From: an uncultured Bacilli bacterium
GTDB taxonomy: Bacteria; Bacillota_I; Bacilli_A; RF39; UBA660
Length of the DNA: 64,000 nt
Assembly: GCA_947631035.1 (NCBI GenBank)
Contig: CANRJW010000001.1
Coordinates: 5,254 to 69,253, forward strand
Direction: 5' to 3'
Position numbers and translations under genes: made by a program. Positions 11,830 to 40,492 of the stretch are shown here, in pieces; the first letter of the stretch is position 1, and the number at the start of each line of letters is the position of its first letter. The notes beneath the pieces are model-generated. The model was not told the origin of the DNA, searched no databases, and was given only the letters and a program-made list of their open reading frames with translations.

Positions 11830-11847
11830 AAAAATCTTTTACTTTTT

Positions 11848-23163: not shown

Positions 23164-23766
23164 ATGGCAAGATATACAGGTCCTGCTTATAAAAAAGCAA
23201 GAAGACTTAATTTTTCATTACTTGAAAATGGTCGTGAAATGGCACGTCGTCCTTATGCTCCTGGTATGCATGGAGTTGATCGTCGTAAAAAAGTAAGTGA
23301 ATACGGAGTCCAATTACAAGAAAAACAAAAAGTACGTTTGATGTATGGTTTAACGGAAAAACAATTTAGAAAAACGTTTGAACATGCTTCTCGTATGAAA
23401 GGTGTTGCTGGTGAAAACTTACTTCGTTTATTAGAAAGTCGTTTAGATAATATTGTTTATCGTATGGGACTTGCTAGAACAAGACGTGGAGCAAGACAAA
23501 TTGTCAATCATGGTCATATCTTAGTCAATGGTAAAAAGGTAAACATTCCTTCTTATCAAGTAAAACCTGGAGATACAGTTAGTGTTAAAGAGCAATCTTT
23601 AGACCATAAAGCAATGAAAGAATCTCTAGAAGCAAATGTAAAAAGCCCTGCTTACGTGACATTTGATGCTAAGAAAATGTCTGGTACTTATGTAAGATAT
23701 CCAGATCGTAGTGAACTTAATAGTGAAATCGACGAAAGTCTTATTGTTGAATTCTATAACAGATAA
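23164..23766 (+). CDS. rpsD: 30S ribosomal protein S4
   Basis: [19 protein letters not shown]...; 200 aa; AAAGGAGA RBS. Confidence 0.95.
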
Positions 23767-23797
23767 AAAAAGCGTTCAGTTAATTGAACGTTTTTTA
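23765..23797. terminator. Bidirectional rho-independent terminator between rpsD (+) and the convergent membrane-protein gene (-)
   Basis: cgttcag-ttaat-tgaacg hairpin flanked by an A-run upstream and a T-run downstream. Confidence 0.6.
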
Positions 23798-24331
23798 ATT
23801 GCTATTATTGTTTGAAGAAGTTGATTCGCTTTTTTGTTCATTTGGCAAATTCGTTTGTTGCAGAATTTGTGGATTCGACAATTGAGTAGAATTATTCTTT
23901 TTTAACTTTATATATTTTATTATGGCGTAAATGAGTAAACCAACAATTGCTATATTATAAAACGTTTGTACAATTGACCTTAAACCTTCAGGTAAAATAG
24001 TGTGAACCGTTCTAACACCATTTATCGTTATTGAAAAAGTAGTAGTTAGAAAAACAACTCCAACTAAAATCCAACCCACAATTTTATTAAATGTTAACTT
24101 TCCTAATAGATAAATATTACATACAGGAATCCAAGCTAACGCTGTACCCTTCCCTGTAGTTAACTTATTCAATTTATTTAAAAATATAGCCAACGCAATA
24201 TGAGTAATAATACAAATAAGGAACAACAGAATTAACATTATAACAGAAATTACTATTAATCCAGAAAACGCCCCAAAAACAAATTTTCCTAATATTTCAA
24301 AACCCTTTATATCCATATCCATATCTATCAC
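23795..24331 (-). CDS. Polytopic membrane protein of unknown function (4 predicted TM helices, Ser/Asn-rich C-tail); own transcription unit downstream of essC
   Basis: Hydrophobicity pattern only. Confidence 0.35.
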   Translation of the reverse strand: MIDMDMDIKGFEILGKFVFGAFSGLIVISVIMLILLFLICIITHIALAIFLNKLNKLTTGKGTALAWIPVCNIYLLGKLTFNKIVGWILVGVVFLTTTFSITINGVRTVHTILPEGLRSIVQTFYNIAIVGLLIYAIIKYIKLKKNNSTQLSNPQILQQTNLPNEQKSESTSSNNNSN

Positions 24332-24451: not shown

Positions 24452-27400
24452 CTAAACATTTGTGTCTTTTGCTTCAAAGTCAGTAAGTAATTTCACTTTA
24501 TAGAGTTTGGCATTATTAATGACATAACCATAATCATTTGGTAATTCTTCTCGATCATCTCTTGTAATTTTAGAAATTTTAAATAACGTTTGATCAGCAA
24601 TTCCACTACCAATCCATATTCCTTTGGTTAAATCAGCACCAACTTTAAACCATTCTTCATAAGTAAATGGTTTAATAACATCTGGATTATCAACAATAAC
24701 AAAAGATACTAAACCGATTTGGGCATCTTTTTTGATACACTCTCCAAACCTTTTTTTAATTTCCTCACTCAATTTATTCATAAAAGCATAGAATCCGTAA
24801 ATAAAGCAATACATTTTCTTTTGATTTTGAATGGATTCTAACTCCATATGATTTTGTTCATAAATGGTATAAACTTGGTCAATATAATCAAGGATTTTGG
24901 TAAGATTTTCTTCGATATTTTTAGTAATCAAATTCGTTGTTAAATTTTCATTTGTTAAGGCATGCTCCGAAGCATTAAAGAAATAAAGATTAGCGTACTT
25001 TTCATAACAAATTTGATTTATAAAAGCATTCAGAACTGCATCGACATTTTCTATGTCATAAGATGCAATAAAGTGAACAGCATTTTTAGAGAAGTTATAT
25101 TTTTCAATAGCAAGTGTATCTTTATTAACACCAACTGCAATAGAAAAATCATGAGTTAAAGCACTTTCAATGCTTGCAAAATTAACTGTCTCTGGTAATA
25201 CTGGAATTTTTTTCGCGCGATATTGAGAAGCTTTATTAAATTTTGTACAAATTTCTCTTATATATTCACTAGTATTTTCTTCTTTAATACTTGCTGTTTG
25301 AAATTCATAAATCTTATCTCTTTTGAATAGTCCTCTTCCTTTTATTTTAGCAGGTATCTTACCATGAACATTACCAAGAATACTTGAATAATCATAGTCG
25401 TTGTTTTGTTGTAGAGCATAAATCAAATTAAAGTTTTGCTTTAAACGCATACGAACACTGCTATCGCTCGTTGCTGTAAGAACAAAACAGATTCCATAAC
25501 GAGTAGCTTCTCTTGTAATTGTTGTTAACTCTTCATTCAAATCTTCAAAGTTTTCCAGAAAAGCTTCATAATTGTTCATTACAACGACAATATTTGGAAG
25601 AATCTTACCACTAGAACGTAAATAACTAATATAATTTCCACCAAAACTAGCAAATAATTTCTTACGAGATTGTAATTCTTCTTGAATCATTTTAAATAGA
25701 TTCATTATTTTATCCGTATCACTTAAGTATGCAATATCTCCAACATGTGGACAAGCTTCAAAATTTCGTAATGTCTCTGAACCAAAATCTAATAAATAGA
25801 AATTTAATTCTGCTACGGAATAAGTTGTCATTCCCGAGTAAATAAAGCTTTCCAAAAATTCTTCTTTACCACTATCAGCAATACCATAGATTAAAGCATT
25901 CCCATCTTCAAATAAAGGCATGGTAAGTAAATATTGATTTTGGCTATCTGGGTCATCATATTCTCCAATAATAGGATTTAATATATAATTTTGACGTTTA
26001 AAGTTATATTTGCTTTTTAAATTATCGATATAAATTTTGGCTGGTATTTTTTCTAACCATAATTTTTTAATTTGAATTTTTTCCGTTCTAGCAAGATCGC
26101 TTAAATATTTTACAATGTTAGAAAGTTCCTCACCATTGGCATTCACCACAATTTCTTTTTTGCTGTCTTTACTCATAGTGGTAATGCCAATATTATTAAT
26201 CATACTAACCGAAGTATCCACATCTTTTTTAAACATTTGACTTGGTATATATCTAGCTCCAGCCCAAGCTGATTGTCCTAAAGTAAAGACCTCGTCATAG
26301 CCCACTTGCAAATAAAATCTTCCGGTTTTCTTTAAATAAGCCGCATCGGGTTTTTTTAGGACTTCTTGAGAGTCTCCTGTATCTTGGACTTTTAAGCAAA
26401 TACGAAAACGGGTATTTGACCAAATTTGTTGGTCGACCACACCACCCGGTTTTTGCGTAGCTAGTATTAAATGGACTCCTAAACTACGACCCACACGGGC
26501 AACAGAAATTAATTTATCCATAAATTCCGGTTGTTGTTCTTTTAATTCAGCAAACTCATCACTAATAATGAAGAGATGGGCAATTTGTTCTTTTCCTGGT
26601 AAACGTCCTTCACGCCACAACTTTTGGTATTTATAAATATCAATTGTACTTTCATTGGTCATAACTCTTGCTTCATTAAATTCTCTTTGACGTCTTTTAA
26701 TTTCACTTTCGATAGAAGCAAGAGAACGCGTTAATTCACTTCCATCTAAATTGGTCATAATTCCCGCCAAATGGGGAAGTGTATAAGAATCATTTTGAAA
26801 AGCTAGAGCAAGTCCTCCACCTTTATAGTCAATTAAAATCACTTGCACTTCGTAAGGGCTATAATTCACTGCTAAAGAAAGCACATAAGTAATAATAAAT
26901 TCTGATTTTCCACTACCAGTAGTTCCGGCAATTAAACCATGAGGTCCATGATATTTTTCATGTAAATCCAAACTAATGACTTCTCCACCTTTACCTATTC
27001 CCACAGGAGTTTGTAAAGAAAGCATTGGATTACTTTTTTTCCATCGTTCTAATGAATTTAATTGTTCAACTTTCCCCACTTGATACATTTCTAAGAAATG
27101 ATAGACATCCGGTAGACTACTTTCTGTTTCACTTTTTATCTCGACTTTAATATTAGCAAGTTCTTTACTGCAATTATAAAGTTCGTCTAGAGAAGATAAA
27201 TCCATTTTAAAACTTTGGGCTTGTTCATTTAAAACACTTTTAAAAATAGCACATTCGTCTTGATTTACATGAATAAAGTTTTTACATTCATTAGGACAAG
27301 CAGAAACCCTGTCAACAAGCATAATAATACTAAATCCGTAGTTTTCAGAACTACCTAAAATATTTTTAATTAAATCATAATTATCAATAGATTTAATCGC

Positions 27401-29050
27401 ATCTGTAACAAGAACATAATGAGGAACATGTCTTTCTTTTTCCTTACTTTCACGTCTTTCATGGTAAATTTTATCTAATTGATAAATCATTTCTCTATAT
27501 TCGTCATTGGTAGAACCAAAAAAACGAAAAGTATGATCATTTGACCAACTATGAGGTAAGGTTTTTACATACTCCCATAAGGATTCATTTTCTGAAGAAG
27601 TAAAGGTAACAATTTTTACTTCATCATAACTATAATTACTCATGATTTGTAATAAAATTCGGTCAGCTAATTCTTTTGTTAAAGACGGACTTCCGACAAT
27701 TCCCGTTGCTTTATTCTCATAAAAAGAATACGTAATAGGAACATCTCTTAAAATTCGTTTCGTCTCCCCTAGTTCATGCACTAAATCAAGTAAATTATCT
27801 TCCGTTAGAGAAAAATGTTCTTCAGGGTATTGTACTTCAATCTCCATGGGAATATTGCCAAGTCCTACAGGAAGGTCTAAAAAATCTTCGTCGCCGATTC
27901 TTCTTTGCCACAAACGCACGTTATGAGCTCTTATAATATCAAGACATTCTGAAACACTTAAATTATTGGAAACCAATGAACTTTTTTGTTTATTCATTTC
28001 TATTTCAATTTCTTTTTCTTTTTTGTCTAAGTATTTTTTATAAAGTTTTTGACGTTTCTTCTCCCATCTTTTATCGGAAAATTTTTGATAAACTTTCGTA
28101 AGTGTTGGCCAAAGTAGAGAACTGGCAAGCATAACAATACACATAGCAATAGAGGTTGCAGAGTCACTTACTGTTCTTTCTCCTTTGTTAATGGCACTCA
28201 TTGTACTCATAAGCATCACAACGCTCATCATGGACATCGTAAGCATCGGTCCAACAGTTAAAATTGCTGGCGTTTGATTTTCCTCTTTTTTAGAAGGTGG
28301 TGCATCAATTTTTAAAACAAATTTATTGGTTCTTTCATAAAATCTCGGGGTACGATAAAAATAATCTTCGCCATAATAATCTTCGGTTAATTCTTCATAC
28401 TCTTCATTAAAATTAGAAATTTCTCCGGTACAAGTTGCATATAAAGCGGAAGGAGCCACAAGTCCACCCGGATTGTTTACCAAGAAATAATCAGCACCCT
28501 CCTTGCGCATTAAAATGAGTTTTAACCCAAAAACAAAAATAATATCCCCATACTCAATTTTTTTAATATGACGAACACGCTTTTGATTGACATAAACAAA
28601 ACTATTTTCATCAACTAATTTTAACATATAAGATTTCTCTTGTTTTTCAATAGTAAATAGGGTATTACTTAGACCTGCTAATTGATAATTAATTTTATTG
28701 TTATCCCCATTTCCCACTGAAACACTAGTATCTTTTAACATATTAAATTCTCTAAAAGATTCATCATAGAGTGGTGCACAATAAAGAAAATATTTTTCTT
28801 GTTTATAATTGTTTTTAATAGAAAAGAATTTCCATTCTTCCAATTTTACATAGGGAACCATTACTTCTTGATTATCGATAATAAAGGCTTCACGATTACT
28901 ATAGAGTATCCATCCTTCTTCTGTTGCATCAATATTCATTAAATTGATTTTACGGCCATTTTCAAAGTCACTAATCCAATAACTTCCTCTTCTGTTTTTG
29001 GGAAGTGTAAACACAATCAATTTGTTTTCTTTTATAAGAGTTATTTGCAT
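24452..29050 (-). CDS. essC: Type VII secretion system (T7SSb) FtsK/SpoIIIE-family ATPase EssC/YukB-like
   Basis: 1532 aa; N-terminal FHA-like region, two TM helices (~aa 255-310), three P-loop ATPase modules (GLIAGTTGSGKSEF.., LIYGIADSGKEEF.., third degenerate); the block TPVGIGKGGEVISLDLHEKYHGPHGLIAGTTGSGKSEFIITYVLSLAV is near-identical to YukB/EssC. Confidence 0.9.
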   Translation of the reverse strand: MQITLIKENKLIVFTLPKNRRGSYWISDFENGRKINLMNIDATEEGWILYSNREAFIIDNQEVMVPYVKLEEWKFFSIKNNYKQEKYFLYCAPLYDESFREFNMLKDTSVSVGNGDNNKINYQLAGLSNTLFTIEKQEKSYMLKLVDENSFVYVNQKRVRHIKKIEYGDIIFVFGLKLILMRKEGADYFLVNNPGGLVAPSALYATCTGEISNFNEEYEELTEDYYGEDYFYRTPRFYERTNKFVLKIDAPPSKKEENQTPAILTVGPMLTMSMMSVVMLMSTMSAINKGERTVSDSATSIAMCIVMLASSLLWPTLTKVYQKFSDKRWEKKRQKLYKKYLDKKEKEIEIEMNKQKSSLVSNNLSVSECLDIIRAHNVRLWQRRIGDEDFLDLPVGLGNIPMEIEVQYPEEHFSLTEDNLLDLVHELGETKRILRDVPITYSFYENKATGIVGSPSLTKELADRILLQIMSNYSYDEVKIVTFTSSENESLWEYVKTLPHSWSNDHTFRFFGSTNDEYREMIYQLDKIYHERRESKEKERHVPHYVLVTDAIKSIDNYDLIKNILGSSENYGFSIIMLVDRVSACPNECKNFIHVNQDECAIFKSVLNEQAQSFKMDLSSLDELYNCSKELANIKVEIKSETESSLPDVYHFLEMYQVGKVEQLNSLERWKKSNPMLSLQTPVGIGKGGEVISLDLHEKYHGPHGLIAGTTGSGKSEFIITYVLSLAVNYSPYEVQVILIDYKGGGLALAFQNDSYTLPHLAGIMTNLDGSELTRSLASIESEIKRRQREFNEARVMTNESTIDIYKYQKLWREGRLPGKEQIAHLFIISDEFAELKEQQPEFMDKLISVARVGRSLGVHLILATQKPGGVVDQQIWSNTRFRICLKVQDTGDSQEVLKKPDAAYLKKTGRFYLQVGYDEVFTLGQSAWAGARYIPSQMFKKDVDTSVSMINNIGITTMSKDSKKEIVVNANGEELSNIVKYLSDLARTEKIQIKKLWLEKIPAKIYIDNLKSKYNFKRQNYILNPIIGEYDDPDSQNQYLLTMPLFEDGNALIYGIADSGKEEFLESFIYSGMTTYSVAELNFYLLDFGSETLRNFEACPHVGDIAYLSDTDKIMNLFKMIQEELQSRKKLFASFGGNYISYLRSSGKILPNIVVVMNNYEAFLENFEDLNEELTTITREATRYGICFVLTATSDSSVRMRLKQNFNLIYALQQNNDYDYSSILGNVHGKIPAKIKGRGLFKRDKIYEFQTASIKEENTSEYIREICTKFNKASQYRAKKIPVLPETVNFASIESALTHDFSIAVGVNKDTLAIEKYNFSKNAVHFIASYDIENVDAVLNAFINQICYEKYANLYFFNASEHALTNENLTTNLITKNIEENLTKILDYIDQVYTIYEQNHMELESIQNQKKMYCFIYGFYAFMNKLSEEIKKRFGECIKKDAQIGLVSFVIVDNPDVIKPFTYEEWFKVGADLTKGIWIGSGIADQTLFKISKITRDDREELPNDYGYVINNAKLYKVKLLTDFEAKDTNV

Positions 29051-29064
29051 ATTACTACCCCTTT

Positions 29065-29319
29065 TTAATATAAAATTAATTTTGAGCCATTTCTAATCTT
29101 ACTTTCTTTTACATATTCTTCTTCACTTATTTTTTCTCCAGTTTCTTGGTCATATAAGGAAGAAGAATGAGTATCAATAAAAATATGGTCACTTTCTTCC
29201 TCAATAATTTGGGCAATTAAATTTTTAATTGTTCCAACTTTTTTCGTTGTTGGAATATAAAGGTCAAAACTTTTTTCTAACATAGGAACTGTGACAACAA
29301 CGTATAATTTACTATTCAT
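29065..29319 (-). CDS. esaB: YukD/EsaB-like ubiquitin-fold T7SS protein
   Basis: 84 aa; YVVVTVPM..KSFDLYIP..KKVGTIKNLIAQ...RNGSKLILY parallels YukD (IDITIDLK..FDLRL..VKKVIDIA...NGDRLEIL); 15 nt upstream of essC. Confidence 0.6.
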   Translation of the reverse strand: MNSKLYVVVTVPMLEKSFDLYIPTTKKVGTIKNLIAQIIEEESDHIFIDTHSSSLYDQETGEKISEEEYVKESKIRNGSKLILY

Positions 29320-29555
29320 TATGCCCTCCTAAAAAAACAAAGGAGCAAGACAACAACAAGTATGAAGACAAGCACACCGATTCCACAAAAAACAGCAAAA
29401 CGAATATTCTTTTTTTTGTTTTCTACTGTTGGTTCTATCTCTACTGTTTTATCAATTCCTGGAACATAAGAATGAGCAAGACTTAGTTTTGCTTTACAAT
29501 TGATACAAATTTGGTCCCCAGGATGGGTCTCATAACCACATTTTTCACACTTCAT
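29319..29555 (-). CDS. Small zinc-ribbon (CxxC...CxxC) single-pass membrane protein, T7SS-associated
   Basis: MKCEKCGYETHPGDQICINCKA plus C-terminal TM FAVFCGIGVLVFILVVVLLLCFF; stop overlaps the esaB start. Confidence 0.4.
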   Translation of the reverse strand: MKCEKCGYETHPGDQICINCKAKLSLAHSYVPGIDKTVEIEPTVENKKKNIRFAVFCGIGVLVFILVVVLLLCFFRRA

Positions 29556-29894
29556 GTTATCACCCTTTATTATGTATTTATTGTATCATAAGGGAAAAAG
29601 AAAGAAAAGAAAAACCAAATGAATTCACTTGATTTTTCCTATTTTTCTAAAAGAAAATTTATTCTATTTTATTTACTTCATTTAGAAACTCCATCACTTT
29701 TTAAATATTCTATAAATAGTTCACTTAAAGTAGTTTTATCACATCTTCTAATACCCATTGACCACTTTAATTAAAACCTTATATATTCATGTATTTCTAT
29801 ATAAATATTCCTCCATAAAAATTATAGAATATTTTATTTTTACAAAAATGAATTTGTAAATTTTTGGGCTCTTAAAACTAACCTTTTTTACAAC

Positions 29895-30620
29895 TTAAAC
29901 ATATGAATCAAGTAATTTTTTTAAATCATTTTTCATTTCAGTAATTGTTGAATATCTTATTCCTTCTTTTGAAGATGTTGCCTTTAAAATAATAAAATTG
30001 GCAAACCAAGGCGCATTAGAACTCTTAAAAGAATATTCCTTTTTTAATTGTAATAATTTATTTGTATCAACATCTCCAAAATTTAATTCAGAATATAACT
30101 CATATAACATAACTCCTAAAGCATATATATCAAAATAAACAGAAACTTTATTCAATTTCAACTGCTCTAAAGAACAATATTTTTTAGTACCATATGAAAC
30201 ATACTCACCAATTTTTCGAGTATTAGCATAATCTATTAAATACAATTTTCCATCATTGCGAATCATAATGTTACTAGGATTTAAATCACAATGTACAAAA
30301 CCATCTTTATGCAAAAATTCTAAAATTTTTGCAACCGAATATAGAATTTCAATATTTTTTTTTAAAGAAATACTATTTTTAATTTTATTATAAGATAACC
30401 CATTTATATATTGATAAACAATATATTTTTTATCAATATCATATTTATATATTTTAGGTAAAAAAGAATATTTTTTTATAATAGAATATACTTTAATTTC
30501 ATTTTTCAATTGTGAAATATCCTTTTCTTTTTTTAAAACCTTTATAAAATAATCGTGATTCGTTTCATTTATATGATAAAAAATACCATTTTGATTTTCT
30601 AATTTTTTTAAAATTTCCAC
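29895..30620 (-). CDS. Minimal protein-kinase-like protein (Ser/Thr-kinase fold without a canonical glycine loop); GTG start
   Basis: HCDLNPSNIM (HRDLKPxN catalytic loop), DYA (DFG-like), GTKKYCSLEQ (APE-like), DIYALGVMLYEL (DxWSxG). Confidence 0.55.
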   Translation of the reverse strand: MEILKKLENQNGIFYHINETNHDYFIKVLKKEKDISQLKNEIKVYSIIKKYSFLPKIYKYDIDKKYIVYQYINGLSYNKIKNSISLKKNIEILYSVAKILEFLHKDGFVHCDLNPSNIMIRNDGKLYLIDYANTRKIGEYVSYGTKKYCSLEQLKLNKVSVYFDIYALGVMLYELYSELNFGDVDTNKLLQLKKEYSFKSSNAPWFANFIILKATSSKEGIRYSTITEMKNDLKKLLDSYV

Positions 30621-30625
30621 TTAAC

Positions 30626-30892
30626 TTACCTTTCAATTAAAATTCTATCTTGAGGAGTAGTTGCAACAAACATTTCTGGAGAGATAAGTTCTTTATAAAA
30701 ACTTTCTATTTCATCTTGTTTTACATCTAAGAATTCAAGCATACCTATAACTGTATTTCTTGGAATCTTAAAAAAACAACCTTCAACACTTAATAATTCT
30801 AATAATAAATTCATTTTTTCTTGTTCCTCTTTTGTGTTAATTTTCTTTTTCTTTTCTTCAATTAAATAATCTAATTTTTCTAAAATATTCAT
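30626..30892 (-). CDS. 88-aa acidic protein translationally coupled (ATGA) to the end of the giant toxin gene; candidate immunity or accessory protein
   Basis: Position and overlap only; no motif. Confidence 0.35.
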   Translation of the reverse strand: MNILEKLDYLIEEKKKKINTKEEQEKMNLLLELLSVEGCFFKIPRNTVIGMLEFLDVKQDEIESFYKELISPEMFVATTPQDRILIER

Positions 30893-30894
30893 TT

Positions 30895-33800
30895 TTATCC
30901 TCCTATAACACCAATGCTCTGAATATAATTTTCATAATCCACATGATTATCAAACATTTTTTTGCCATTTTTTTGGTCATATACTATATAATCCGTACCA
31001 TTATCTTTAGATACTGTAATAATACAAAGTGGTATTGTTTTATCATCAGCTTTGATATATTCCGTTGCAGTGCTCACCTTTATATTATCTTGTTTATTAA
31101 ATAAAATATATTTCAAATTGCTAAAATAAACTCGAGCTTCAAATCCATCCATATATTCTGGAATTGGGGTATTTTCAAAATCTTTAATTAAATCAACAGT
31201 ATCAGTATTCTCCGTACTAGGTTTAAATACATTGTTGGCCTTTTCTAAAAGTTTATCAAAATATTCATTTTCTTTAACGCCAATTTTTTTATCCACATTT
31301 GCCCATGTTGTTCCATATTGTGCTAATACAGAATTATCCAAATTTACTAATCTTTTATGTGATAATTTATTCATATATCCATATACAAAACCAGCTGTAG
31401 CAAAACCACATTTGCAATTAACTAAATCATTTGATTTATTGATAGCATCGGTTGCATCAGCAACAATAACGCGATTTTCATCTACTTTAACTTCAACCCA
31501 TTTATGGGAACCCACACTATCACCACCAATAATGGATACATTTTTTTCTTCTATTCCACTAGCAATTAATAACTCGGCATATAACTGACTCCATCCTTTA
31601 CAAATGACATTATTGCTCTCTAAATTTTGAAAGTTAAGATTTTTATTATAAATAGTTGCCTTAATACCTAAATTTTCTTCATTATCATCCATAAAAGTTG
31701 TATCATAATGTACCCGTTTATTCAATTCATAATAAATTTTACGGGATTTTTCTAATATGGACCATTTTGAATCAATTAGTGACAATATTTCGTATTTTAT
31801 GTAATTTAAATTTTCTGTTGTAGTTGAATTGGTTGGATTTGAAATATCCCATTTTTCTGATAATTCTGCGCCTTCTATTTTATGTGCAACCTTATCATAC
31901 CAATCTCTAGCAACAATTTTTGATATTTTTTTCTCTTTTATAAAGTTGGCTAAATAAGAATTATCCCTGAAGTTTTCATAAGTATCATACTCGTATTTAG
32001 AAACTTTTTTATATTTTAGTTTACCTTCCTGTTGAACTAAAACAAAATATTCTTTTGAAGTAAATGCATTTTTTAAATTCCAATCCCCCTCATATATAAT
32101 AGCACTATCGTCTAGATTTCGAACCTTTAATTTTGAACTAGTAATAGTTTCTAAACCAGGATTTACTTTAAGAGCTGTAATTTTCACAGGTAAATCATTT
32201 AAATTTGTAGCCACTGCTCCTACTTCTGGAATACCAGCAAAAAATATTTTTTTACCAAAATTCATTACAGAATTACTATTTTTCAATAATTGACTCGACA
32301 TAATTTTATCAATATCTTTTTCACTAGAAAAATAATATAATCCTTCTTTTAAAATTTTATCATTCAAACCTTTAAAATAATTCGTGTCAGTATATATAAA
32401 TCTATGCATAGTCGAAATTAATTTATTGGACATTGCATTTAATACATTATGGCTTTGATAATTTGTTAATAACACATTCAAGTCAGGTAATTTCTTTTCA
32501 TTATTTAATGGTACTGTTACTTCTTCAGTAATATTTTCATCCGTATTTAAATTTTCTTCATTTGAAATAGTTATTGAATCTACTCGGATATCACTTTTAT
32601 CTTCTTTTAATTCTTCAGCATTATTTTCTTCTAATATGTCTGTAGCTTCATCAGCCTCTAGCACTTCTATTACATTATCATCCAATTTTTTGCTACTGCT
32701 AATAGAATTTTCTGCTATTTTGACATCAGGTCCTAAAGATTCAAAAGTTTTCTTTAACATATCACTGAACTCATCACCGAATATTTCTTTAAGAGTGGTT
32801 AAATATTTCTTATCTGTTAAAATTAAACTCGTATAAGTTGCAAACATCTCATGAAAAGAAATTAAATCACTTCCAATAGGATGATTTTCATAATATTCAG
32901 CACTATGACCATATCGAAGACGATATTTTTCATTTTGATTAAATGAAATCTCCGGATTTTTATAAACACTACAAATAATACTAGATAAATCTATTAAATC
33001 AGGGTATTTTTTAGACATATTCTCATAGGTTAGTTTTGTTATCTTATCGGATACCTCATAAGTAGCAACTTGCTCGCGTAATTCGGCACCACTTATATCT
33101 TTCAAATGTTCTTTTAAAGAAGGATGACGTTCAAATAAATTTTCTTTAATTTGCGTAAAATTTGTTTTATTGTAATTTTGTAATTCTTTAGTAACTACTT
33201 CATCTAATGTTGATACATTATATTGTTTCATGACACTTTTTTGGGCATCATTTAAACATTCATTGCGAGATTTTTCAATTTGTTCTTGTAATGAAATAAT
33301 TTTTTCTGAATTGACATTTTTTATAGCGCGTCCGATTATATTTTGATAATCGTCAGGTAATTTTTCATTTAATACTTTTTCAAAGAAGGCATGTCCCATT
33401 TCATGAAATAAAGCCCTAGAATTTTTCTTATCCGCATTAAGATAAACATTTCCGTTGTTTTCATAACTTCCTTCATTTGTTTCATAAAAATGAATTTGAT
33501 CTTTCATATTTAAAAGTAATTCTCTTATTGCTGTTGCTTCTGTATTGCCTTTTTTGGCAGAATCTAAAAGATAATCACTTACAAGTTTGACAAGTTTTGG
33601 ATCACTTTTTCCATCCTGAGTAAGCGTTTTTATAAAATGGCTTTCTTTCGATTCAAATATTGACTTTATCTTATTTTTGATTTTATCATCAATTTTTAAA
33701 TCCAGTATTGTATTCCCTTTTGAATTTGTTCTAATATTATATTTACTAGTATCCACTTTAGATAATTTTAAAATATTTTCTATAACAGAATAATCTATTT

Positions 33801-36800
33801 TTTTATCCGTTGTTTCAAACGTCATTTCATACATTTTAACGTTTCTTTGTCTTTGTTCTATTCCAAGAGCAAATCGTGCTACTGCCAAATTCGTTTCCTT
33901 TGTGGAAGGTGTTTTTGTTAAATTTTTAATAAAGCCTAATTTTTGCATTTGTCTTAATAACATAAAAGTATTTGCTTGACTTGTTGTTCCATATTTATGA
34001 TTTTTTTCTAATTGTTGGAAAGCATTTAAAGAACGAACCAAAAAATATTCTTGGGGATTATCTGAAAATCTAGATTTTATAAAATCATTATAAGAAAATA
34101 CATTTTGATTTAATTTTATAATTTGTTCCGTTTTACCATCAGCAGTCTGCATTTTAGAATCAGCAGTCATTAAAATACTATCTTTTATATTATTATTATA
34201 AAAACCATCATTCATTAAACTGATACTTTTTAAGGCAAGTGGTACACTTAAAACAGCCCCAATTGGACCAGAAGAAACTAAACTCGTGAAAGCAACAAGA
34301 CCTGCAGTTCCCCCTATCAGTTTTGCTCCTCGAACTGTAGCATTTTTAACTTGCTTAATTTTTAAAGGTTTAGAATCGTTTACTAACTCTAAAGTATTTT
34401 TATTTTCAAATAATGAATTTAAATAACTATCTTTTATCGATTGAACATTTTTTTTGTTATTAACATATTCTTCTATTTTCTTTCCTTCTTCGGTATTTTT
34501 ATAATGATCATATACATCTTTAGAAACTGATTCGTAGACTAACTCATCTTGTTTTTGTTTTAATACAAAATATTCTTTTGAAGCTTCCTGATTTGTCAAG
34601 TCAAATTTTCCATCATAACTAATGGCATGATCATCTAGATTTCGTATTTTTAACTTTGAACTTTCAATAATATCCGTTGTAGGCATAACTTTAACAGCCG
34701 TTGCTGTTAATGGCAAGTAATCCAAATTGGTTGCAAAAGCACCTACCTCTGGAACTCCTGAAAAGAAGAAAGTTTTTGGATTTCCATAAGAGGCATTAAT
34801 ACCGCTTGGCTTAATATAACCACTTTGCAGAATTTGATCTGCTGCACTTGTAAAATGATACAATCCATTCTTTTCTATTCCTTCATTTACACCAACAAAA
34901 TTATTTGTATTTTTGTATACATATTTTTTTAAATTTGACTCTAAAGTAAGTCGTATGGATTGTGGTAATGAAAAATTATTATATTTTAATCCATTTATTT
35001 TATCTTGAGTTTGAACTTTAGGCGTTTCCAATTTTTGTTTGTTCATTTGGGTATTTACTTCACTTATGACTAAATTTGGTGAATTTAAAATTCCACCTGT
35101 AATAGCTCCATAAATAGCACTCTTTTTGGCATTTTCAGTTACTTCTTGTAAATCAATATCTTCCTTAAAAATTCCATATCGTGTTAAGGCATCTACATAT
35201 TCTTGGGTTCCTTCTTCCACCCCTTCTTTTAACATGGATTGAGCAAACGTTTTTAATCCTGTTACATTAACATCACTTAATCCTGGTATTGCTCCTAAAA
35301 ATCTTTCCATTGTAGTTTCTGATACCCCTGATACCACTCCATATAAAACAGAATTTTTTAAATCCTTGCCTTCTACCATAGCACTATGGTAACTGCTACC
35401 TCCAGCACTAATTCCCATACTCACACTACCTACTGCTGGAGTACAAAGAATTCCTAAGGCCATACTTGGTATCATATTACCAATACTTTGTGATATTTCA
35501 TAATTATTATCAAGTATTTTATTGTACTTTTCCGTATTTTGTAAAGCTTCTAGGATATACATAGATTCATATTCATCTTCACTATAAATGCGCGAATCAC
35601 TTGCTAAATTATTTTCAATTCCTAAAAGGGAAGATGCATATGCCCCTACTCCTTTTATAGCATTTGCAAATCCGCCAAAAAAAGATTCTGTTCCATCTCC
35701 TAAACCTTTTCCTGCTACTTTTGCATGGTTTTCTAAAAAACTTGATAATTTCTTGGTAATTTCTTCGTTTGCTTTTTCATCTTCTAAACCATTTAAAAAT
35801 TTTTGGGCTTTTAAATATCCATTCATTTGATTGACATTATTTTTAGTAGCCAATAAATATTCTTCTGCTGCTTCTTCTCCTCTTTTTTCCCATAAATAAT
35901 TATACATTTTTGCTAATTCTGGATTGCTTTTGGAAGCTTTTAATAAACTTTCTAATTCTCCTTTATGTTCGATTGTAATTTGATCACGATTCGCATATTG
36001 GTTTAACGTTCTAAATTGTTCTAATGGACTTATCTCTTTCTTACCGATATCTTTAATACTGGCTTCTTTATAGTTATAATTTTGGTAATCTTCTGTCAAT
36101 GGTAATAATTCATACAAGGAACAACTTTTTAACTCTTTTGTTTTTTCAATAGAAGCTTCTAGTGTTGCTTTATCACTTTTTAGTTCATTTAAACGCTTGC
36201 TAAATTCTTGATAATTGGCAAAATTGGTTGATGCTTTTACAGCATTTGTTAAATCGGATTCACTTTTATTAACCGTTGCATACATCTTTTTGACATCACT
36301 ATCTTTTGCTTGACACAATTTTAATAATTCGGTTGTACTTAATGTTGCTAATTCCTTTTTGGTTATTCCCAGTTCTTTTAATTTAGAATCGGTACAGCCA
36401 AAATTTTTATAATCACTTATAAGTTTATTAATGTCTGCTTCTACCAATCTTTTTTGATTTTGGGCAAGTTCATTTGCTCGAGCAAATTGTTTTTCAAACG
36501 GAAGTAATTTGTTTAATTCTTCATTTACTGTGTCTAAAAGCCCATCATATTCCTCTATTTCTTTTTGATACATTTCTTCATATTCATGAAGTAAACTTTG
36601 AAAGGCATCACTTTCTACATTTTCCATATTGTCATATTGGGTATTATAAGCACCTAAATTCATTTTAAAATTTGCAAAAACAGCATTTAAGTTGTCCATG
36701 CCAAAAGAAGTTTTTTGAATTGAATTCAAATTGGGAATTATTAACGAAGAATGCTCTATAGGAAAAATTTTTTCGTCATATAATTTTAGTTTTGATAAAG

Positions 36801-37116
36801 AATTACGATATTTTCCAACAATACCCCTTGTGCTTGAATCAAATAATCCTTTTTGTCCACTATTACTTAAATTTTCTTCTATAGCCTCTAAATCAAAAGC
36901 ATATTCTCTTAAATACTCTGCAACATTTCCAATATTCTTAGCAATAGTTATATAATTTTTATTTATTTTTCCTAAATAAGTAGATACAGGTGTCCCGCTG
37001 GAACTATACGAATTGGGTATAAAATTTTTTTGTTTATTTTGATAGTAAGTTTGATAGTTTTTCATTGTATTAATATTGGTTGTAATAGCACTAGTGCTGG
37101 CAAATAACTTATCCAT
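30895..37116 (-). CDS. Giant (~2074 aa from ATG 37116) multi-domain polymorphic-toxin candidate in the T7SSb locus: helical LXG-like N-terminal region, glycine-rich PT-TG-like segments, duplicated ~150-aa domain, HExxH zincin motif, C-terminal transglutaminase-like Cys-His-Asp domain
   Basis: Track ORF starts at TTG 37155, but ATG 37116 has an AAGGA RBS. Gly-rich segments FFGGFANAIKGVGAYASS..MGISAGGSSYHSAMVEG and LIGGTAGLVAFTSLVSSGPIGAVLSVP. Internal repeats GLYHFTSAADQIL..FFFSGVPEVGAFATNL..SSKLKIRNLDD vs GLYYFSSEKDIDKI..IFFAGIPEVGAVATNL..SSKLKVRNLDD. HEMGH encoded at 33391-33405. C-terminus CKGWSQLYAELLIASGI ... GSHKWVEVKV ... VIVADATD resembles a transglutaminase/papain-like triad. Confidence 0.6.
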   Translation of the reverse strand: MDKLFASTSAITTNINTMKNYQTYYQNKQKNFIPNSYSSSGTPVSTYLGKINKNYITIAKNIGNVAEYLREYAFDLEAIEENLSNSGQKGLFDSSTRGIVGKYRNSLSKLKLYDEKIFPIEHSSLIIPNLNSIQKTSFGMDNLNAVFANFKMNLGAYNTQYDNMENVESDAFQSLLHEYEEMYQKEIEEYDGLLDTVNEELNKLLPFEKQFARANELAQNQKRLVEADINKLISDYKNFGCTDSKLKELGITKKELATLSTTELLKLCQAKDSDVKKMYATVNKSESDLTNAVKASTNFANYQEFSKRLNELKSDKATLEASIEKTKELKSCSLYELLPLTEDYQNYNYKEASIKDIGKKEISPLEQFRTLNQYANRDQITIEHKGELESLLKASKSNPELAKMYNYLWEKRGEEAAEEYLLATKNNVNQMNGYLKAQKFLNGLEDEKANEEITKKLSSFLENHAKVAGKGLGDGTESFFGGFANAIKGVGAYASSLLGIENNLASDSRIYSEDEYESMYILEALQNTEKYNKILDNNYEISQSIGNMIPSMALGILCTPAVGSVSMGISAGGSSYHSAMVEGKDLKNSVLYGVVSGVSETTMERFLGAIPGLSDVNVTGLKTFAQSMLKEGVEEGTQEYVDALTRYGIFKEDIDLQEVTENAKKSAIYGAITGGILNSPNLVISEVNTQMNKQKLETPKVQTQDKINGLKYNNFSLPQSIRLTLESNLKKYVYKNTNNFVGVNEGIEKNGLYHFTSAADQILQSGYIKPSGINASYGNPKTFFFSGVPEVGAFATNLDYLPLTATAVKVMPTTDIIESSKLKIRNLDDHAISYDGKFDLTNQEASKEYFVLKQKQDELVYESVSKDVYDHYKNTEEGKKIEEYVNNKKNVQSIKDSYLNSLFENKNTLELVNDSKPLKIKQVKNATVRGAKLIGGTAGLVAFTSLVSSGPIGAVLSVPLALKSISLMNDGFYNNNIKDSILMTADSKMQTADGKTEQIIKLNQNVFSYNDFIKSRFSDNPQEYFLVRSLNAFQQLEKNHKYGTTSQANTFMLLRQMQKLGFIKNLTKTPSTKETNLAVARFALGIEQRQRNVKMYEMTFETTDKKIDYSVIENILKLSKVDTSKYNIRTNSKGNTILDLKIDDKIKNKIKSIFESKESHFIKTLTQDGKSDPKLVKLVSDYLLDSAKKGNTEATAIRELLLNMKDQIHFYETNEGSYENNGNVYLNADKKNSRALFHEMGHAFFEKVLNEKLPDDYQNIIGRAIKNVNSEKIISLQEQIEKSRNECLNDAQKSVMKQYNVSTLDEVVTKELQNYNKTNFTQIKENLFERHPSLKEHLKDISGAELREQVATYEVSDKITKLTYENMSKKYPDLIDLSSIICSVYKNPEISFNQNEKYRLRYGHSAEYYENHPIGSDLISFHEMFATYTSLILTDKKYLTTLKEIFGDEFSDMLKKTFESLGPDVKIAENSISSSKKLDDNVIEVLEADEATDILEENNAEELKEDKSDIRVDSITISNEENLNTDENITEEVTVPLNNEKKLPDLNVLLTNYQSHNVLNAMSNKLISTMHRFIYTDTNYFKGLNDKILKEGLYYFSSEKDIDKIMSSQLLKNSNSVMNFGKKIFFAGIPEVGAVATNLNDLPVKITALKVNPGLETITSSKLKVRNLDDSAIIYEGDWNLKNAFTSKEYFVLVQQEGKLKYKKVSKYEYDTYENFRDNSYLANFIKEKKISKIVARDWYDKVAHKIEGAELSEKWDISNPTNSTTTENLNYIKYEILSLIDSKWSILEKSRKIYYELNKRVHYDTTFMDDNEENLGIKATIYNKNLNFQNLESNNVICKGWSQLYAELLIASGIEEKNVSIIGGDSVGSHKWVEVKVDENRVIVADATDAINKSNDLVNCKCGFATAGFVYGYMNKLSHKRLVNLDNSVLAQYGTTWANVDKKIGVKENEYFDKLLEKANNVFKPSTENTDTVDLIKDFENTPIPEYMDGFEARVYFSNLKYILFNKQDNIKVSTATEYIKADDKTIPLCIITVSKDNGTDYIVYDQKNGKKMFDNHVDYENYIQSIGVIGG

Positions 37117-37226
37117 ATTAATACATCCTTTCTTCTTAGAGGCATAGAAAAACAACCCTACTTTATTATTACTTAAATCTTATCATATTTTCAGGTTGTC
37201 TTCAATCATTTTAAATTCTTTATCTA

Positions 37227-37234
37227 TTTTGTTT
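37227..37234. repeat. 8-bp target-site duplication TTTTGTTT, left copy, of the IS66-family insertion
   Basis: Identical octamer abuts both ends of the element (second copy at 39026-39033). Confidence 0.8.
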
Positions 37235-39025
37235 GTTACAATTCACAGCTGAAATAAAAAGAAACTAGAAAAAAGAAAGAAATTCTAGTTTTTTAAATGT
37301 TAAAAGAATAGTTAATAAGTAGGTAAAATTTGTTCATAACTATAAGCATTATTTCTAGGTTAAACGGGCAATAAATGGTATAATTATCTTATAAAGTTGG
37401 TGGCAATAATGGCAGTAGAAACAAGTTTAAGTAAATTACAAAAGCAAGTAGATAAATTAGAAAAAGATAATTTAAAATTAAGAGATTTATTGGCAGAAAG
37501 AAAAGCAAAACAAGAACAAGCAGAAAAATCATTAAAATATTATAAAGAGAATATAGAAAAAATAGTAACAGATGCAGTGGAAAAAGCAACCACAGAACTA
37601 ATGAAAGAATTAAATAAAATAAAAGAAGAAAATGAACATTTAAAAAGGATATTAAACCATGATAGTAGTAATACAGGAATACCAACAAGTAAAACGAAAA
37701 TAGGAGAAGAAAAAAGAATACCGAATTCAAGAGAAAAAAGTAATAAATCAAAAGGTGGACAAACAGGACATAAAAAAACGAAGTTAGAAAAATTTAAAGA
37801 TAATGAAATAACAGATACCTATACATATGAAATAGCAAAACCAATCTGTAATGAATGTGGAGGTAAATTAAACTTAATAGGAAAAAGAAGCAAAGATGAT
37901 TTTGATATAGAAATAAGATTAGTAAAAAGAAGAAATGAATTTTGTATATATGAATGTAGTTGTTGTCATAAAGAAATAAAAGTACCAATACCAGATAAAT
38001 TAAAGGAAGAAAATCAATATGGAAGTAATGCTCAAGCACTAGCCATATCACTAGTAAATGAAGGATATGTATCCTTTAAAAGAACCAGAGAGTTAATAAG
38101 TGGCTTTACAGGTGGAGAAATGAATATGAGCGAAGGATACATAGTCAAATTACAAAAGAGATGTTATGAAAAATTAAAAGAATTTGACAATAGTCTTCAC
38201 CAAGAGATATTAAAACAATCCTTATTAAACTGGGATGATACAACAATAAGTATCAACGGAAAGCAATCATGCTTAAGATTTTATGGAAATGAAAATCTAA
38301 GATATTACAAAGCTCATGCAAAGAAAGATAAAGATGGAATAGATGAAGATGGAATACTTAAATATCTAAGTAAAGATACTATGGTAGTACATGATCACAA
38401 TAAAGTAAATTATAATGAAGATTATGACTTTACGAATGCAGAATGTTGTGTACATTTAATACGTGATTTAAGAGAACTAAATGATTGTCTTTCTAGAGAA
38501 TGGATAGAAAATCTCATAAAGTTATTAGTAGATACAAATGACAAAAGAAAAGAATATATAGATAAAAGTATTCTTCAATTTGATAGTGAAGTATCAGATA
38601 AAGTAATAGAAGATTATGACAAAATCATAGAACAAGCCAAAAAAATCAATTTAAAAGATTTCAATCAATATTATGGAAAAGAAGAAAGAACAATGATAAA
38701 GAGGCTTGAAGATTATAAAGAGAATTATCTATTATGGGTACTAAGATTTGATATACCATTTTCAAATAATCTAAGTGAACGAGCATTAAGAGGGAGCAAG
38801 ACAAAAATGAAAGTATCAGGACAGTTTGCAAATATACAAAATGCTGAATACTTCGCAAGAATAAAATCTTATATGGAAACTTGCAAATGTCATAATATTA
38901 ATCCTCACACTGCCTTAGTTCGACTTATAGAAGATAATCCTTATACTTTAGAAGAATTAAAAATAAACTAAGTTTTTGCTTAGTCTATTTTATGTTATTT
39001 TCTTTTCGGGGCTGTGAATAGTAAC
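37235..39025 (+). mobile_element. Intact single-ORF IS66-family insertion sequence (1791 bp) with imperfect terminal inverted repeats and a perfect 8-bp TSD
   Basis: IRL GTTACAATTCACAGCTGAAATAAAAAGAAA vs reverse complement of the right end GTTACTATTCACAGCCCCGAAAAGAAAATAA; flanked by TTTTGTTT on both sides; encodes an IS66-type transposase. Confidence 0.8.
37397..38971 (+). CDS. IS66-family transposase
   Basis: 524 aa; N-terminal leucine zipper/coiled coil; GGQTGHKKTK (IS66 GQPGHKG-like); C-x2-C...C-x2-C zinc-ribbon; WDDTTISINGK DDE region; C-terminal NNLSERALRGSKTKMKVSGQF..ETCKCHNINP matches the IS66 NNxAERALR tail. Confidence 0.85.
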   Translation: MVAIMAVETSLSKLQKQVDKLEKDNLKLRDLLAERKAKQEQAEKSLKYYKENIEKIVTDAVEKATTELMKELNKIKEENEHLKRILNHDSSNTGIPTSKTKIGEEKRIPNSREKSNKSKGGQTGHKKTKLEKFKDNEITDTYTYEIAKPICNECGGKLNLIGKRSKDDFDIEIRLVKRRNEFCIYECSCCHKEIKVPIPDKLKEENQYGSNAQALAISLVNEGYVSFKRTRELISGFTGGEMNMSEGYIVKLQKRCYEKLKEFDNSLHQEILKQSLLNWDDTTISINGKQSCLRFYGNENLRYYKAHAKKDKDGIDEDGILKYLSKDTMVVHDHNKVNYNEDYDFTNAECCVHLIRDLRELNDCLSREWIENLIKLLVDTNDKRKEYIDKSILQFDSEVSDKVIEDYDKIIEQAKKINLKDFNQYYGKEERTMIKRLEDYKENYLLWVLRFDIPFSNNLSERALRGSKTKMKVSGQFANIQNAEYFARIKSYMETCKCHNINPHTALVRLIEDNPYTLEELKIN

Positions 39026-39261: not shown

Positions 39262-39317
39262 ATTTTTCCAACTTTCCTATAAACCTATTTTTACTCTAGC
39301 ATATTTTTAAAGTATCT

Positions 39318-39812: not shown

Positions 39813-39821
39813 AATAATCCT

Positions 39822-40109: not shown

Positions 40110-40121
40110 ATTGAATCCCTT

Positions 40122-40424: not shown

Positions 40425-40492
40425 CCTTTTTTATAAATAAGCTTTTAAAATTTTAAAAGCTTATTTATAAAAACCACTTAAGTGGTTTTTAT

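Follow-up and report, generated by a model that had tools for sequence, protein, structure and literature searches.

What does a small, soluble protein kinase do inside a type VII secretion system (T7SS) toxin cassette? The question is raised by a 64,000-nt stretch of DNA (hereafter, the window) from the metagenome-assembled genome of an uncultured gut Bacilli bacterium, in which leuS and rpsD flank a reduced type VII secretion island. The original prediction for this DNA held that a soluble kinase is not a described component of such cassettes, and we likewise found no description of one in the literature; where kinases have been reported at T7SS loci, they are core components bound to the membrane (PMC11217815).

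Layout of the island

The island runs from WXG-like genes through a giant toxin, an 88-aa ORF, the kinase, a zinc-ribbon/TM protein and YukD to EssC, and contains the following features:

39318 to 41137, minus strand: WXG100-like genes for helper and substrate proteins (214, 100, 95 and 164 aa), lying upstream of the toxin gene, with Pfam WXG100 and NCBIfam WXG100_ESAT6 matches.
30895 to 37155, minus strand: giant T7SS-associated polymorphic toxin, a 2086-aa ORF from a TTG; gene callers place its start at the ATG at 37116 (2073 aa).
30898 to 31902, minus strand: transglutaminase-/papain-like C-terminal domain of the toxin, with a Cys-His-Asp triad (CKGWS, SHKWVEV, ADATD).
30626 to 30892, minus strand: helical protein of 88 aa, probably the immunity protein cognate to the transglutaminase-like domain.
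29895 to 30620, minus strand: 241-aa soluble Hanks-type Ser/Thr kinase domain, non-RD and without a Gly-rich loop, with a GTG start.
29556 to 29894, minus strand: intergenic gap of 339 bp with a terminator-like hairpin (29640-29607).
29319 to 29555, minus strand: zinc-ribbon protein of 78 aa with a single TM helix, a conserved neighbour of the T7SS core.
29065 to 29319, minus strand: YukD/EsaB-like ubiquitin-fold protein (Pfam YukD E 4.7e-5, 24.5 bits, just under the cut-off of 27).
24452 to 29050, minus strand: EssC ATPase of the T7SS (NCBIfam T7_EssCb_Firm, 1030 bits versus a cut-off of 778).

The set of WXG100-like genes keeps its synteny in many related loci, the zinc-ribbon gene lies upstream of yukD-essC in most of them, and the YukD-like gene, which adjoins essC, is also kept. 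The 88-aa and 241-aa products were identical in independent gene calls on five other contigs. The hairpin in the gap is the 1 terminator-like site found there versus 0.3 expected from shuffled sequences, and is a consensus match only; a promoter scan of the region returned 19 candidates, which is not above the 17.6 expected from shuffles.

The C-terminal domain of the toxin matched Pfam Transglut_core at E 5.6e-4 (20.6 bits, under the cut-off of 23), and its Cys-His-Asp triad is conserved when the protein is aligned with the toxins of two related loci, L012 and L030 (related loci are identified here by L numbers). The first 260 residues gave no match to Pfam LXG (PF04740) at E<=1 and a weak YwqH-like match (0.0017). 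Since it has WXG100-like partner genes and lies in an EssC context, the toxin may, by analogy, work like an LXG toxin, with membership of that class unproven.

The 241-residue kinase domain

The 241-aa ORF had been read as a minimal protein kinase with intact catalytic residues, and profile comparison bore this out. The protein matched Pfam Pkinase (PF00069) at E 4.5e-22 (79.1 bits versus a cut-off of 31.7), far beyond chance, and has the bilobal kinase fold; the motifs HCDLNPSN, DYA and DIYALGVMLYEL are all present in the ORF. The lack of a glycine-rich loop and of a TM helix was also correctly called: the beta1-beta2 turn reads ENQNG, with no GxGxxG in the protein, and the best 19-residue Kyte-Doolittle mean is 1.09, versus 3.3-3.4 for two true membrane proteins nearby. 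By its sequence, then, the gene is a complete, soluble Hanks-type kinase domain of the PknB/Stk1-like kind.

An exhaustive search defined a family of kinases of 228-262 aa, which form at least 36 clusters at 50% identity among the best 150 matches; a word-indexed profile search recovered only 3 members. This mini-kinase family is undescribed. Across 38 family sequences with a mean column identity of ~39%, K27, E41, D112 and D130 do not vary and at least 90% retain N117, a set that covers the beta3 Lys, the helix C Glu, the HxD Asp, the catalytic-loop Asn and the DFG Asp. The retention of these residues at such divergence indicates selection for catalysis. The GxGxxG column is not conserved across the family either, and its members are non-RD, with a short activation segment. 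At one position the window kinase departs from its relatives: N114 (in HCDLNPSN) stands where at least 90% of them have the catalytic-loop Lys of H-x-D-x-K-x-x-N. Because of this substitution the window copy could be weak or inactive; overall, we regard it as probably catalytically active.

The best solved relatives of the family profile were S. aureus PknB (4eqm, 2.6e-48), StkP and M. tuberculosis PknB. The likeness to these PASTA kinases (M. tuberculosis PknB, S. aureus Stk1/PknB, S. pneumoniae StkP) lies in the catalytic domain. Unlike them, the mini-kinase has no juxtamembrane segment, TM helix, PASTA sensor or GxGxxG loop; it carries HCD where PknB and Stk1 carry HRD, and is therefore non-RD; its activation segment of about 22 residues is without the double-Thr sites of PknB; and it is encoded in toxin cassettes, whereas the PASTA kinases are found with a PP2C phosphatase in a cell-wall operon. 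As for the minimal kinases of Bacillus, YabT has a C-terminal TM helix, and PrkD/YbdM is, to our knowledge, not encoded at a T7SS locus. The window kinase also falls outside the PrkT family, because it scored 34 bits with the NCBIfam PrkT model against a cut-off of 280.

EssB/YukC of T7SSb likewise has a kinase-like fold and a gene that adjoins EssC in its type VII locus. The window protein had been suggested to be an EssB-like pseudokinase remnant; a related reading makes it a dead adaptor that docks on EssC in place of a missing EssB. Profile searches detected no EssB, EsaA or EssA gene in the island, and the pseudokinase domain of EssB binds the FHA domains of EssC (PMC10765036). The missing Gly-rich loop of the window copy and its Asn in place of the catalytic-loop Lys would fit such a role as well. 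EssB, however, belongs to the conserved core, sits in the membrane, and has an extracellular domain and catalytic residues that are degraded (PMC10765036), whereas the window protein is soluble and sporadic, has neither a TM helix nor an extracellular C-terminal domain, and gave no match to Pfam YukC (PF10140) at E<=0.1. Across the whole family, moreover, the catalytic Lys, Glu, Asp, Asn and Asp residues are retained, and the gene is missing in nearly all sister loci with the same machine (see below). We therefore reject the remnant, and consider any reading of this kind highly improbable.

A further suggestion was that of a second effector, in which a secreted protein or orphan toxin module would carry the kinase domain as its payload. 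Kinase toxin domains are known in polymorphic toxin systems ('Tox-Peptide Kinase', PMC3482391), and orphan modules typically lie downstream of toxin-immunity pairs. All 241 residues, however, belong to the kinase domain, with no further domain and no N-terminal helical targeting domain of LXG or WXG type; the family begins at its own conserved N-terminus, in beta1 of the kinase, and no candidate immunity gene follows the kinase in the window, L007 or L042. We also looked at longer matches that contain the domain (P0234, P0278 and P0261) as candidate Rosetta-stone or toxin fusions, and rejected them, as they are ordinary HRD kinases with Gly-rich loops. An effector role consequently appears very unlikely.

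The 88-residue ORF and the exchanged toxin end

An overlap of the toxin stop codon with the start of the 88-aa ORF (ATGA) had been taken as typical of an immunity gene, but the sequence has none. The junction, read on the coding strand, is ...GGA GGA TAA AA ATG AAT..., such that two bases separate the toxin TAA (30897-30895) from the ATG of the 88-aa ORF (30892-30890), and the apparent ATGA consists of the ATG and the base that opens the following codon. The two ORFs are nonetheless tightly coupled, since the last two codons of the toxin contain the GGAGGA Shine-Dalgarno sequence. The GTG of the kinase lies 5 bases after the TAA of the 88-aa ORF.

The immunity-like character of the 88-aa ORF stood up on other grounds. 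Homologues with 28-43% identity directly follow the same transglutaminase-like C-terminal domain in three further cases that are visible (L012, L030 and L001), and another is present in L041, where the upstream sequence is cut. The toxins ahead of these homologues differ in length (773 aa in L012, 901 aa in L030), and the small ORF, which has the position of an immunity gene, co-varies with the C-terminal domain and not with the N-terminal part. Since it accompanies the transglutaminase-like toxin end whether the kinase is present or not, the 88-aa protein probably serves as the cognate immunity protein for that end. Searches of Pfam, NCBIfam and PADLOC gave no family match for it, and a word-indexed protein search recovered only the protein itself. 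A single-sequence AF2 model is a helical bundle (pLDDT 79), for which Foldseek found nothing significant in the PDB (all matches E>5). The other 88-aa ORF, at 38995-39261, is unrelated.

Comparison with the closest relative, L007, which comes from a near-identical strain, placed both small genes in a single exchanged segment:

29654 to 34384, minus strand: block replaced relative to L007 (blastn of the window against L007).

The block takes in the last 1170 aa of the toxin together with the 88-aa ORF and the kinase, and extends ~240 nt beyond the kinase. Its flanks are 79% and 86% identical to L007 at the DNA level, with homology resuming at 29653, while blastn of the interior found no DNA match except one 272-bp internal-repeat match. 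The N-terminal 918 aa of the toxin show 74% identity to the L007 toxin, with divergence thereafter. Between the same two loci rpsD is 98% and EssC 91% identical, versus only 33% (protein) for the kinases, and the GC content of the kinase gene is 20% versus 31% for the window.

A family HMM detected the kinase in only 2 of the 28 loci with a closely related EssC (56-91% identity). The kinase is thus an accessory and mobile gene, dispensable for the secretion machine. Absence of the kinase from homologous loci that retain the toxin had been named in advance as a finding that would refute the prediction. For this toxin type such loci do occur: L012 and L030 have the C-terminal domain and a homologue of the 88-aa protein but lack the kinase, which is therefore no partner of this toxin in particular. 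What stands is its recurrence in T7SS toxin cassettes generally. Kinase identities were 40-42% among cassettes with the same toxin end versus 41-42% among different cassettes, and these near-equal values give no sign of co-evolution with a specific toxin.

Contexts of the mini-kinases and their proposed role

All 12 family members with an examined context were found in T7SS or polymorphic-toxin surroundings, although these contexts are phylogenetically non-independent, being mostly short contigs from related AT-rich gut Bacilli. The mini-kinase usually comes last, behind a toxin and a small ORF with which its translation is often coupled, and in six cases its start overlaps the end of the upstream ORF. 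It follows an 88-aa family ORF in the window, L001 and L041, and a 109/112-aa family ORF in L007, L042 and L045; the toxins of L007 and L042 have ADP-ribosyltransferase (ART) domains, and only the tail of the ORF upstream is visible in L045. Other orders occur in L037 (ART toxin, 127-aa ORF, HD_4 hydrolase, ADP-ribosylglycohydrolase, then the kinase directly) and L038 (EssC, YukD, toxin with a papain-like end, 236-aa ORF, kinase). The kinase therefore recurs irrespective of the toxin C-terminal domain. In L046 and L048 a DUF4176 gene comes after the kinase; the 109/112-aa ORFs ahead of it in L007 and L042 look DUF4176-like by eye, but with an hhalign probability of only 10.8%. That the protein is a kinase domain and is linked to T7SS cassettes can be held with high confidence.

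Placement in such cassettes bears on whether the protein could be a stand-alone defence kinase of the abortive-infection type, like PD-T4-6 or Stk2, that merely rides in the variable region. The PADLOC models PD-T4-6 and mad6 match nearly its full length at E 1e-25 to 1e-38, and the sporadic distribution, low GC and swapped block would suit a defence gene. These scores are, however, no better than generic kinase similarity (4.5e-22 for Pfam Pkinase; 2.6e-48 with PknB for the profile), and the 12 contexts, in which the kinase start often overlaps the upstream cassette gene, point to the cassette itself. Scans of IMG/VR and the JGI metagenomes with the family alignment recovered generic kinases only, the best at 194 bits versus at least 238 for members, and no members. 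We consider a stand-alone defence role improbable.

In L050 the mini-kinase comes directly after EssC-YukD and before a DUF4176-like ORF, with no toxin-immunity pair ahead, an arrangement that fits a machine- or regulation-linked role as well as one in the immunity slot. As a regulator of secretion or toxin release, the kinase would license export by phosphorylating a component of the T7SS, a helper protein or the complex of toxin and immunity protein, on the model of the membrane kinases found in subtypes c, d, e and j of the T7SS or of the PpkA-Fha pathway of type VI secretion. Variant T7SS loci commonly hold kinases, phosphatases and FHA proteins, and TscD, TsdD, TseD and TsjD of those four subtypes are Ser/Thr kinases whose active site is conserved (Garrett, Higginson & Palmer 2024, PMC11217815). 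These proteins are membrane-anchored, have large C-terminal domains, belong to the core at every locus of their subtype, and are partnered by an EssC whose FHA domains keep the phosphothreonine-binding motif (PMC11217815). A kinase that looks to be of their type is encoded in the distant Murimonas locus L033, where a Zn-ribbon/TM protein and a 690-aa kinase-TM-TPR protein lie directly upstream of a canonical-FHA EssC.

The mini-kinase, in contrast, has no anchor, large C-terminal domain, core status or canonical-FHA EssC. The FHA-like domain of EssC is degenerate in kinase-bearing loci (Pfam FHA E 0.06, below cut-off, for the N-terminal domain in the window; none in L007 and L038) versus a canonical match at 8.3e-18 in Murimonas, which makes a core T7SS kinase with FHA signalling unlikely. 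The gene is missing in 26 of the 28 closely related EssC loci and is exchanged with the toxin end, not retained with the conserved core. No phosphatase partner was seen, and the family profile scored 168 bits with S. aureus PknB versus only 109 bits with the Murimonas T7SS kinase. A regulatory role therefore seems to us unlikely, if less so than a defence role.

Our best guess, offered tentatively and built on gene position and analogy, is that the kinase is an accessory enzyme of the immunity slot that would act by phosphorylation. In this proposal it would occupy the slot of the cassette otherwise given to immunity genes and work in the cytoplasm of the producer, where, constitutively active, it might protect or condition the cell by phosphorylating either a toxin or the cellular target of a toxin. 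It would then be an enzymatic, non-cognate protective factor, comparable to the ADP-ribosylhydrolase and HD hydrolase genes found at that position in one of the related cassettes. The ADP-ribosylhydrolase Tri1 and other enzymatic immunity proteins share this slot after the toxin, with a different chemistry; Tri1 protects by reversing ADP-ribosylation. We found no precedent for a kinase immunity protein in the literature, and we know of no kinase for which protective activity has so far been shown, or that has been shown to protect in this manner in any secretion-system toxin-immunity module.

The broader proposition is more doubtful, namely that the mini-kinases are a new class of enzymatic factor for interbacterial defence or toxin control: a third cassette gene encoding a constitutively active, non-RD Ser/Thr kinase, which might confer broad protection independent of toxin type by neutralising toxins or hardening their targets through phosphorylation. 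Were the kinase only a hitch-hiker or a weak pseudo-enzyme, the finding would shrink to an annotation note. If the proposition is true, antagonism between bacteria of the gut Bacillota would acquire a post-translational layer. Cassettes currently described as helpers, toxin and immunity protein would gain a recurrent catalytic kinase as a fourth element, and, because it is swapped together with toxin ends, the kinase may mark cassette boundaries in metagenomes. The family would also offer for study a bacterial kinase that is compact (~240 aa), non-RD and without a sensor, and whose genetic context is defined.

Layout of the island and its toxin cassette

The window derives from an uncultured gut Bacilli MAG, whose nearest relatives are rabbit-gut 'Lapin' MAGs with varying labels (Bacilli, Tenericutes, Mycoplasma). 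Its region between leuS and rpsD is a reduced type VII secretion system (T7SS) island, with these features:

41245-43650: leuS, one flank of the island
38995-39261 (-): 88-aa ORF unrelated to the toxin-adjacent one
37397-38971 (+): IS66-family transposase
30895-37155 (-): 2086-aa toxin ORF
30626-30892 (-): 88-aa ORF, 3' of the toxin and 5' of the kinase
29895-30620 (-): 241-aa kinase ORF, GTG start, 3' of the 88-aa ORF
23164-23766: rpsD, the other flank

Along transcription, three WXG100-like genes come first, together with a 164-aa gene. Toxin, 88-aa ORF and kinase follow, and beyond a 339-bp gap the island continues with the 78-aa zinc-ribbon/TM protein, a YukD-like protein, the ATPase EssC (NCBIfam T7_EssCb_Firm, 1030 bits) and a membrane protein of 178 aa. 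Searches of the island turned up no gene for EssB, EsaA or EssA. Gene calls on five independent contigs carrying identical proteins recovered the 88-aa and 241-aa products, and gave a toxin of 2073 aa with an ATG start at 37116. The last 335 toxin residues form a transglutaminase-/papain-like domain (Pfam Transglut_core 20.6 bits, slightly below cut-off) with a Cys-His-Asp triad that is kept in homologues. Because the N-terminus has no Pfam LXG match, we call the toxin LXG-like by context only. Its make-up looks like that of a multi-payload toxin: a domain of ~175 aa is duplicated internally (residues about 750-920 and 1566-1743; about 34395-34905 and 31926-32459, minus strand), the copy in L007, the closest relative, matching the second at 43%, and there is also an HEMGH zinc-metallopeptidase-like motif and a hydrophobic stretch.

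Several local features accompany this layout. A ~2.1 kb block (37207-39296), missing from L007, interposes the unrelated 88-aa ORF and the opposite-strand transposase between the WXG helper genes and the giant toxin, and may cut the toxin off from upstream helpers and promoter. The 178-aa multi-TM protein (23795-24331, minus strand) between essC and rpsD makes a second insertion specific to the strain, at the edge of the island, since L007 has no counterpart and its essC abuts rpsD. A 15-pair hairpin with a T-rich tail (29607-29640, minus strand), between the kinase and zinc-ribbon genes and just inside the point where L007 homology resumes, is a possible terminator or attenuator that would set the core genes apart from the toxin cassette. 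Among housekeeping genes downstream of the nusA-infB operon lies a PD-(D/E)XK-family transposase-like ORF (16487-17320, plus strand; Pfam PDDEXK_2, 2.6e-11).

The original prediction placed an ATGA overlap at the toxin stop, which the coding strand (GGA GGA TAA AA ATG AAT) does not contain: two bases separate the toxin TAA from the ATG of the 88-aa ORF. The two genes are tightly coupled all the same, because GGAGGA, the last two toxin codons, can serve as a ribosome-binding site. The kinase GTG follows the stop codon (TAA) of the 88-aa ORF at a distance of five bases, and this start is supported by homologues that align from that N-terminus.

Homologues of the 88-aa ORF (28-43% identity) lie directly 3' of the same Cys-His-Asp domain in three related loci, L012, L030 and L001, the toxins bearing it being 773 aa in L012 and 901 aa in L030. 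Such co-variation with the C-terminal end of the toxin is characteristic of a cognate immunity gene, so that the immunity-type assignment made earlier stands; judged from sequence, the product is probably the cognate immunity protein of the transglutaminase-like end. It matched no known family in Pfam, NCBIfam or PADLOC, and its single-sequence model, a helical bundle (pLDDT 79), had no significant neighbour in the PDB. In L021, a 199-aa protein (14798-15397) composed of two tandem copies of the immunity-like domain lies directly 3' of essC with no adjoining transglutaminase-like toxin, and is a candidate orphan immunity gene.

Identity of the kinase domain

The 241-aa product belongs to the Hanks-type kinase superfamily. 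Pfam Pkinase scored 79.1 bits against a cut-off of 31.7, and the motifs originally quoted are present. When 1.84 billion representatives were searched exhaustively, the best 150 matches included, amid ordinary long kinases, at least 36 clusters of 228-262-aa proteins (E 1e-19 to 1e-49); in IMG/VR and JGI metagenomes, nothing but generic kinases matched the family alignment. Across this alignment of 38 sequences (mean column identity 39%), K27, E41, D112, D130 and D164 are invariant, and H110, K114 and N117 are conserved in at least 90%. Arg never precedes the catalytic Asp in these 38 sequences (variants HCD, HGD, HND, HLD and FGD), which makes the family non-RD, unlike PknB/Stk1, which read HRD. 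Two Hanks-type features are absent: the Gly-rich loop is lacking, as had been noted (no GxGxxG, the turn being ENQNG), and the window copy specifically lacks the catalytic-loop Lys, with Asn at the K114 position. This copy also has DYA in place of DFG. The protein is soluble, its best 19-residue hydropathy mean being 1.09 versus 3.3-3.4 for two nearby membrane proteins, in line with the predicted lack of a TM segment.

AlphaFold2 with the family alignment gave a model (pLDDT 95.2, pTM 0.92), for which IRAK4 and PknB ranked top in Foldseek (TM 0.75-0.82), bearing out the expected kinase fold; the best solved relatives of the family profile were S. aureus PknB (2.6e-48), StkP and M. tuberculosis PknB. 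From these scores, residues, model and relatives, we therefore conclude that the kinase is a catalytic-domain-only relative of Firmicute PASTA kinases. The Pkinase, catalytic-residue, fold and profile evidence rejects the EssB-like pseudokinase remnant once suggested, and membership in EssB/YukC or the TsxD core kinases is rejected; a role as an EssB-like adaptor is among the less likely readings.

Cassette linkage and mobility

Genomic context was examined for 12 members from the at least 36 clusters, mostly on short contigs from related AT-rich gut Bacilli. Ten further contigs (L002-L006, L039, L040, L043, L044 and L047), whose proteins are the same as those found with one of the 12, were not counted separately.

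Genomic contexts of 12 kinase family members, in gene order (L numbers, related loci or contigs; ART, ADP-ribosyltransferase)
Window: toxin (transglutaminase-like end), 88-aa ORF, kinase
L001: tail of transglutaminase-like toxin domain, 89-aa homologue (43% identity), kinase (38%)
L041: 88-aa homologue (upstream cut), kinase
L007: toxin with ART end (PF03496, 1.1e-15), 109-aa ORF, kinase
L042: toxin with ART and HD domains, 112-aa ORF (homologue of the L007 109-aa ORF), kinase
L045: tail of 112-like ORF, kinase, four-gene helper set
L037: ART toxin, 127-aa ORF, HD_4 hydrolase, ADP-ribosylglycohydrolase, kinase
L038: EssC, YukD, 1215-aa toxin (papain-like end; N-part 47% identical to the window toxin), 236-aa ORF, kinase, four-gene helper set as in L045
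L046, L048: upstream ORF, kinase, DUF4176
L050: EssC, YukD, kinase, DUF4176-like ORF
L049: contig too short to judge

These 12 contexts show that the kinase is specifically linked to T7SS/polymorphic-toxin cassettes, is usually the last gene after toxin and small ORF, and is present independently of toxin-end type. In L007 the kinase start overlaps the end of the 109-aa ORF in ATGA. The 109/112-aa ORF family that precedes the kinase (L007 6621-6950, L042 1944-2282, L045 3-83) has a pattern common to DUF4176 T7SS chaperones (L-x-VGD-x-hKI...DYA...LFN-x-x-DI), with an hhalign probability of just 10.8%. In L037 (2077-3901), the 127-aa ORF, the 150-aa HD_4 protein, which is small alarmone hydrolase-like, and the 323-aa ADP-ribosylglycohydrolase 3' of the ART toxin form a possible multi-enzyme immunity array.

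The kinase is dispensable and mobile. The family HMM, run on 30 loci recovered through EssC, found it in two of the 28 with closely related EssC, the window and L007; the distant Murimonas intestini DSM 26524 locus (L033) gave a generic kinase at 109 bits. Absence of the kinase where the toxin type is retained, named originally as counting against a cassette role, is what L012 and L030 display: both have the Cys-His-Asp toxin end and the 88-aa homologue, and neither has the kinase. By sequence identity (rpsD 98%, EssC 91%, toxin residues 1-918 74%), the window and L007 are near-identical strains, and their DNA homology ends at 34385 and restarts at 29653, the replaced block comprising the toxin C-terminal half, the small ORF and the kinase. 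The two kinases are merely 33% identical, the kinase gene has 20% GC versus 31% for the window, and kinases sharing a toxin end are no closer to each other than to those of other cassettes. A hitch-hiking defence kinase is a less likely reading of the gene. Beside the cassette boundary in L007 (7716-9415), a 396-aa ATPase-like ORF and a truncated zinc-ribbon duplicate (63 aa, 91% identical over 56 aa) follow the kinase and precede the intact zinc-ribbon gene, which looks like an insertion with target duplication.

Proposed role of the kinase

The main rival to a protective function is regulation of export, for which the L050 arrangement and the core kinases of T7SS subtypes c, d, e and j (PMC11217815) speak. 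It is weakened by the absence of the kinase from sister loci, by its exchange along with toxin ends, and by the degenerate FHA-like domain of EssC in kinase-bearing loci (Pfam FHA E 0.06 in the window, no match in L007 and L038; 8.3e-18 in Murimonas). The Murimonas locus, whose EssC has this canonical FHA domain, encodes a 293-aa zinc-ribbon/TM protein and a 690-aa kinase-TM-TPR protein directly upstream of EssC (6891-14578). This arrangement is reminiscent of the T7SSj/e type. It hints that a shared core component has left a remnant in the window lineage, namely the 78-aa zinc-ribbon protein.

In our literature searches, the only kinases encountered at T7SS loci were membrane-bound core components or the chromosomal regulator IreK, and no soluble kinase in toxin-immunity cassettes turned up, which agrees with the view that such a gene is not a described component. 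The second-effector alternative, a secreted kinase, is less likely than the protective reading. That reading is favoured because the kinase lies where additional or orphan immunity genes are usually located, has its translation coupled to that of the immunity-type gene before it, and in L037 closes an array of enzymatic immunity-type genes (HD hydrolase, ADP-ribosylhydrolase). Because the kinase is non-RD, has only a short activation segment and lacks a sensor domain, we predict that it is probably constitutively active. We tentatively suggest, at somewhat less than even confidence, that it may be a producer-side protective or conditioning enzyme that would act by phosphorylation.
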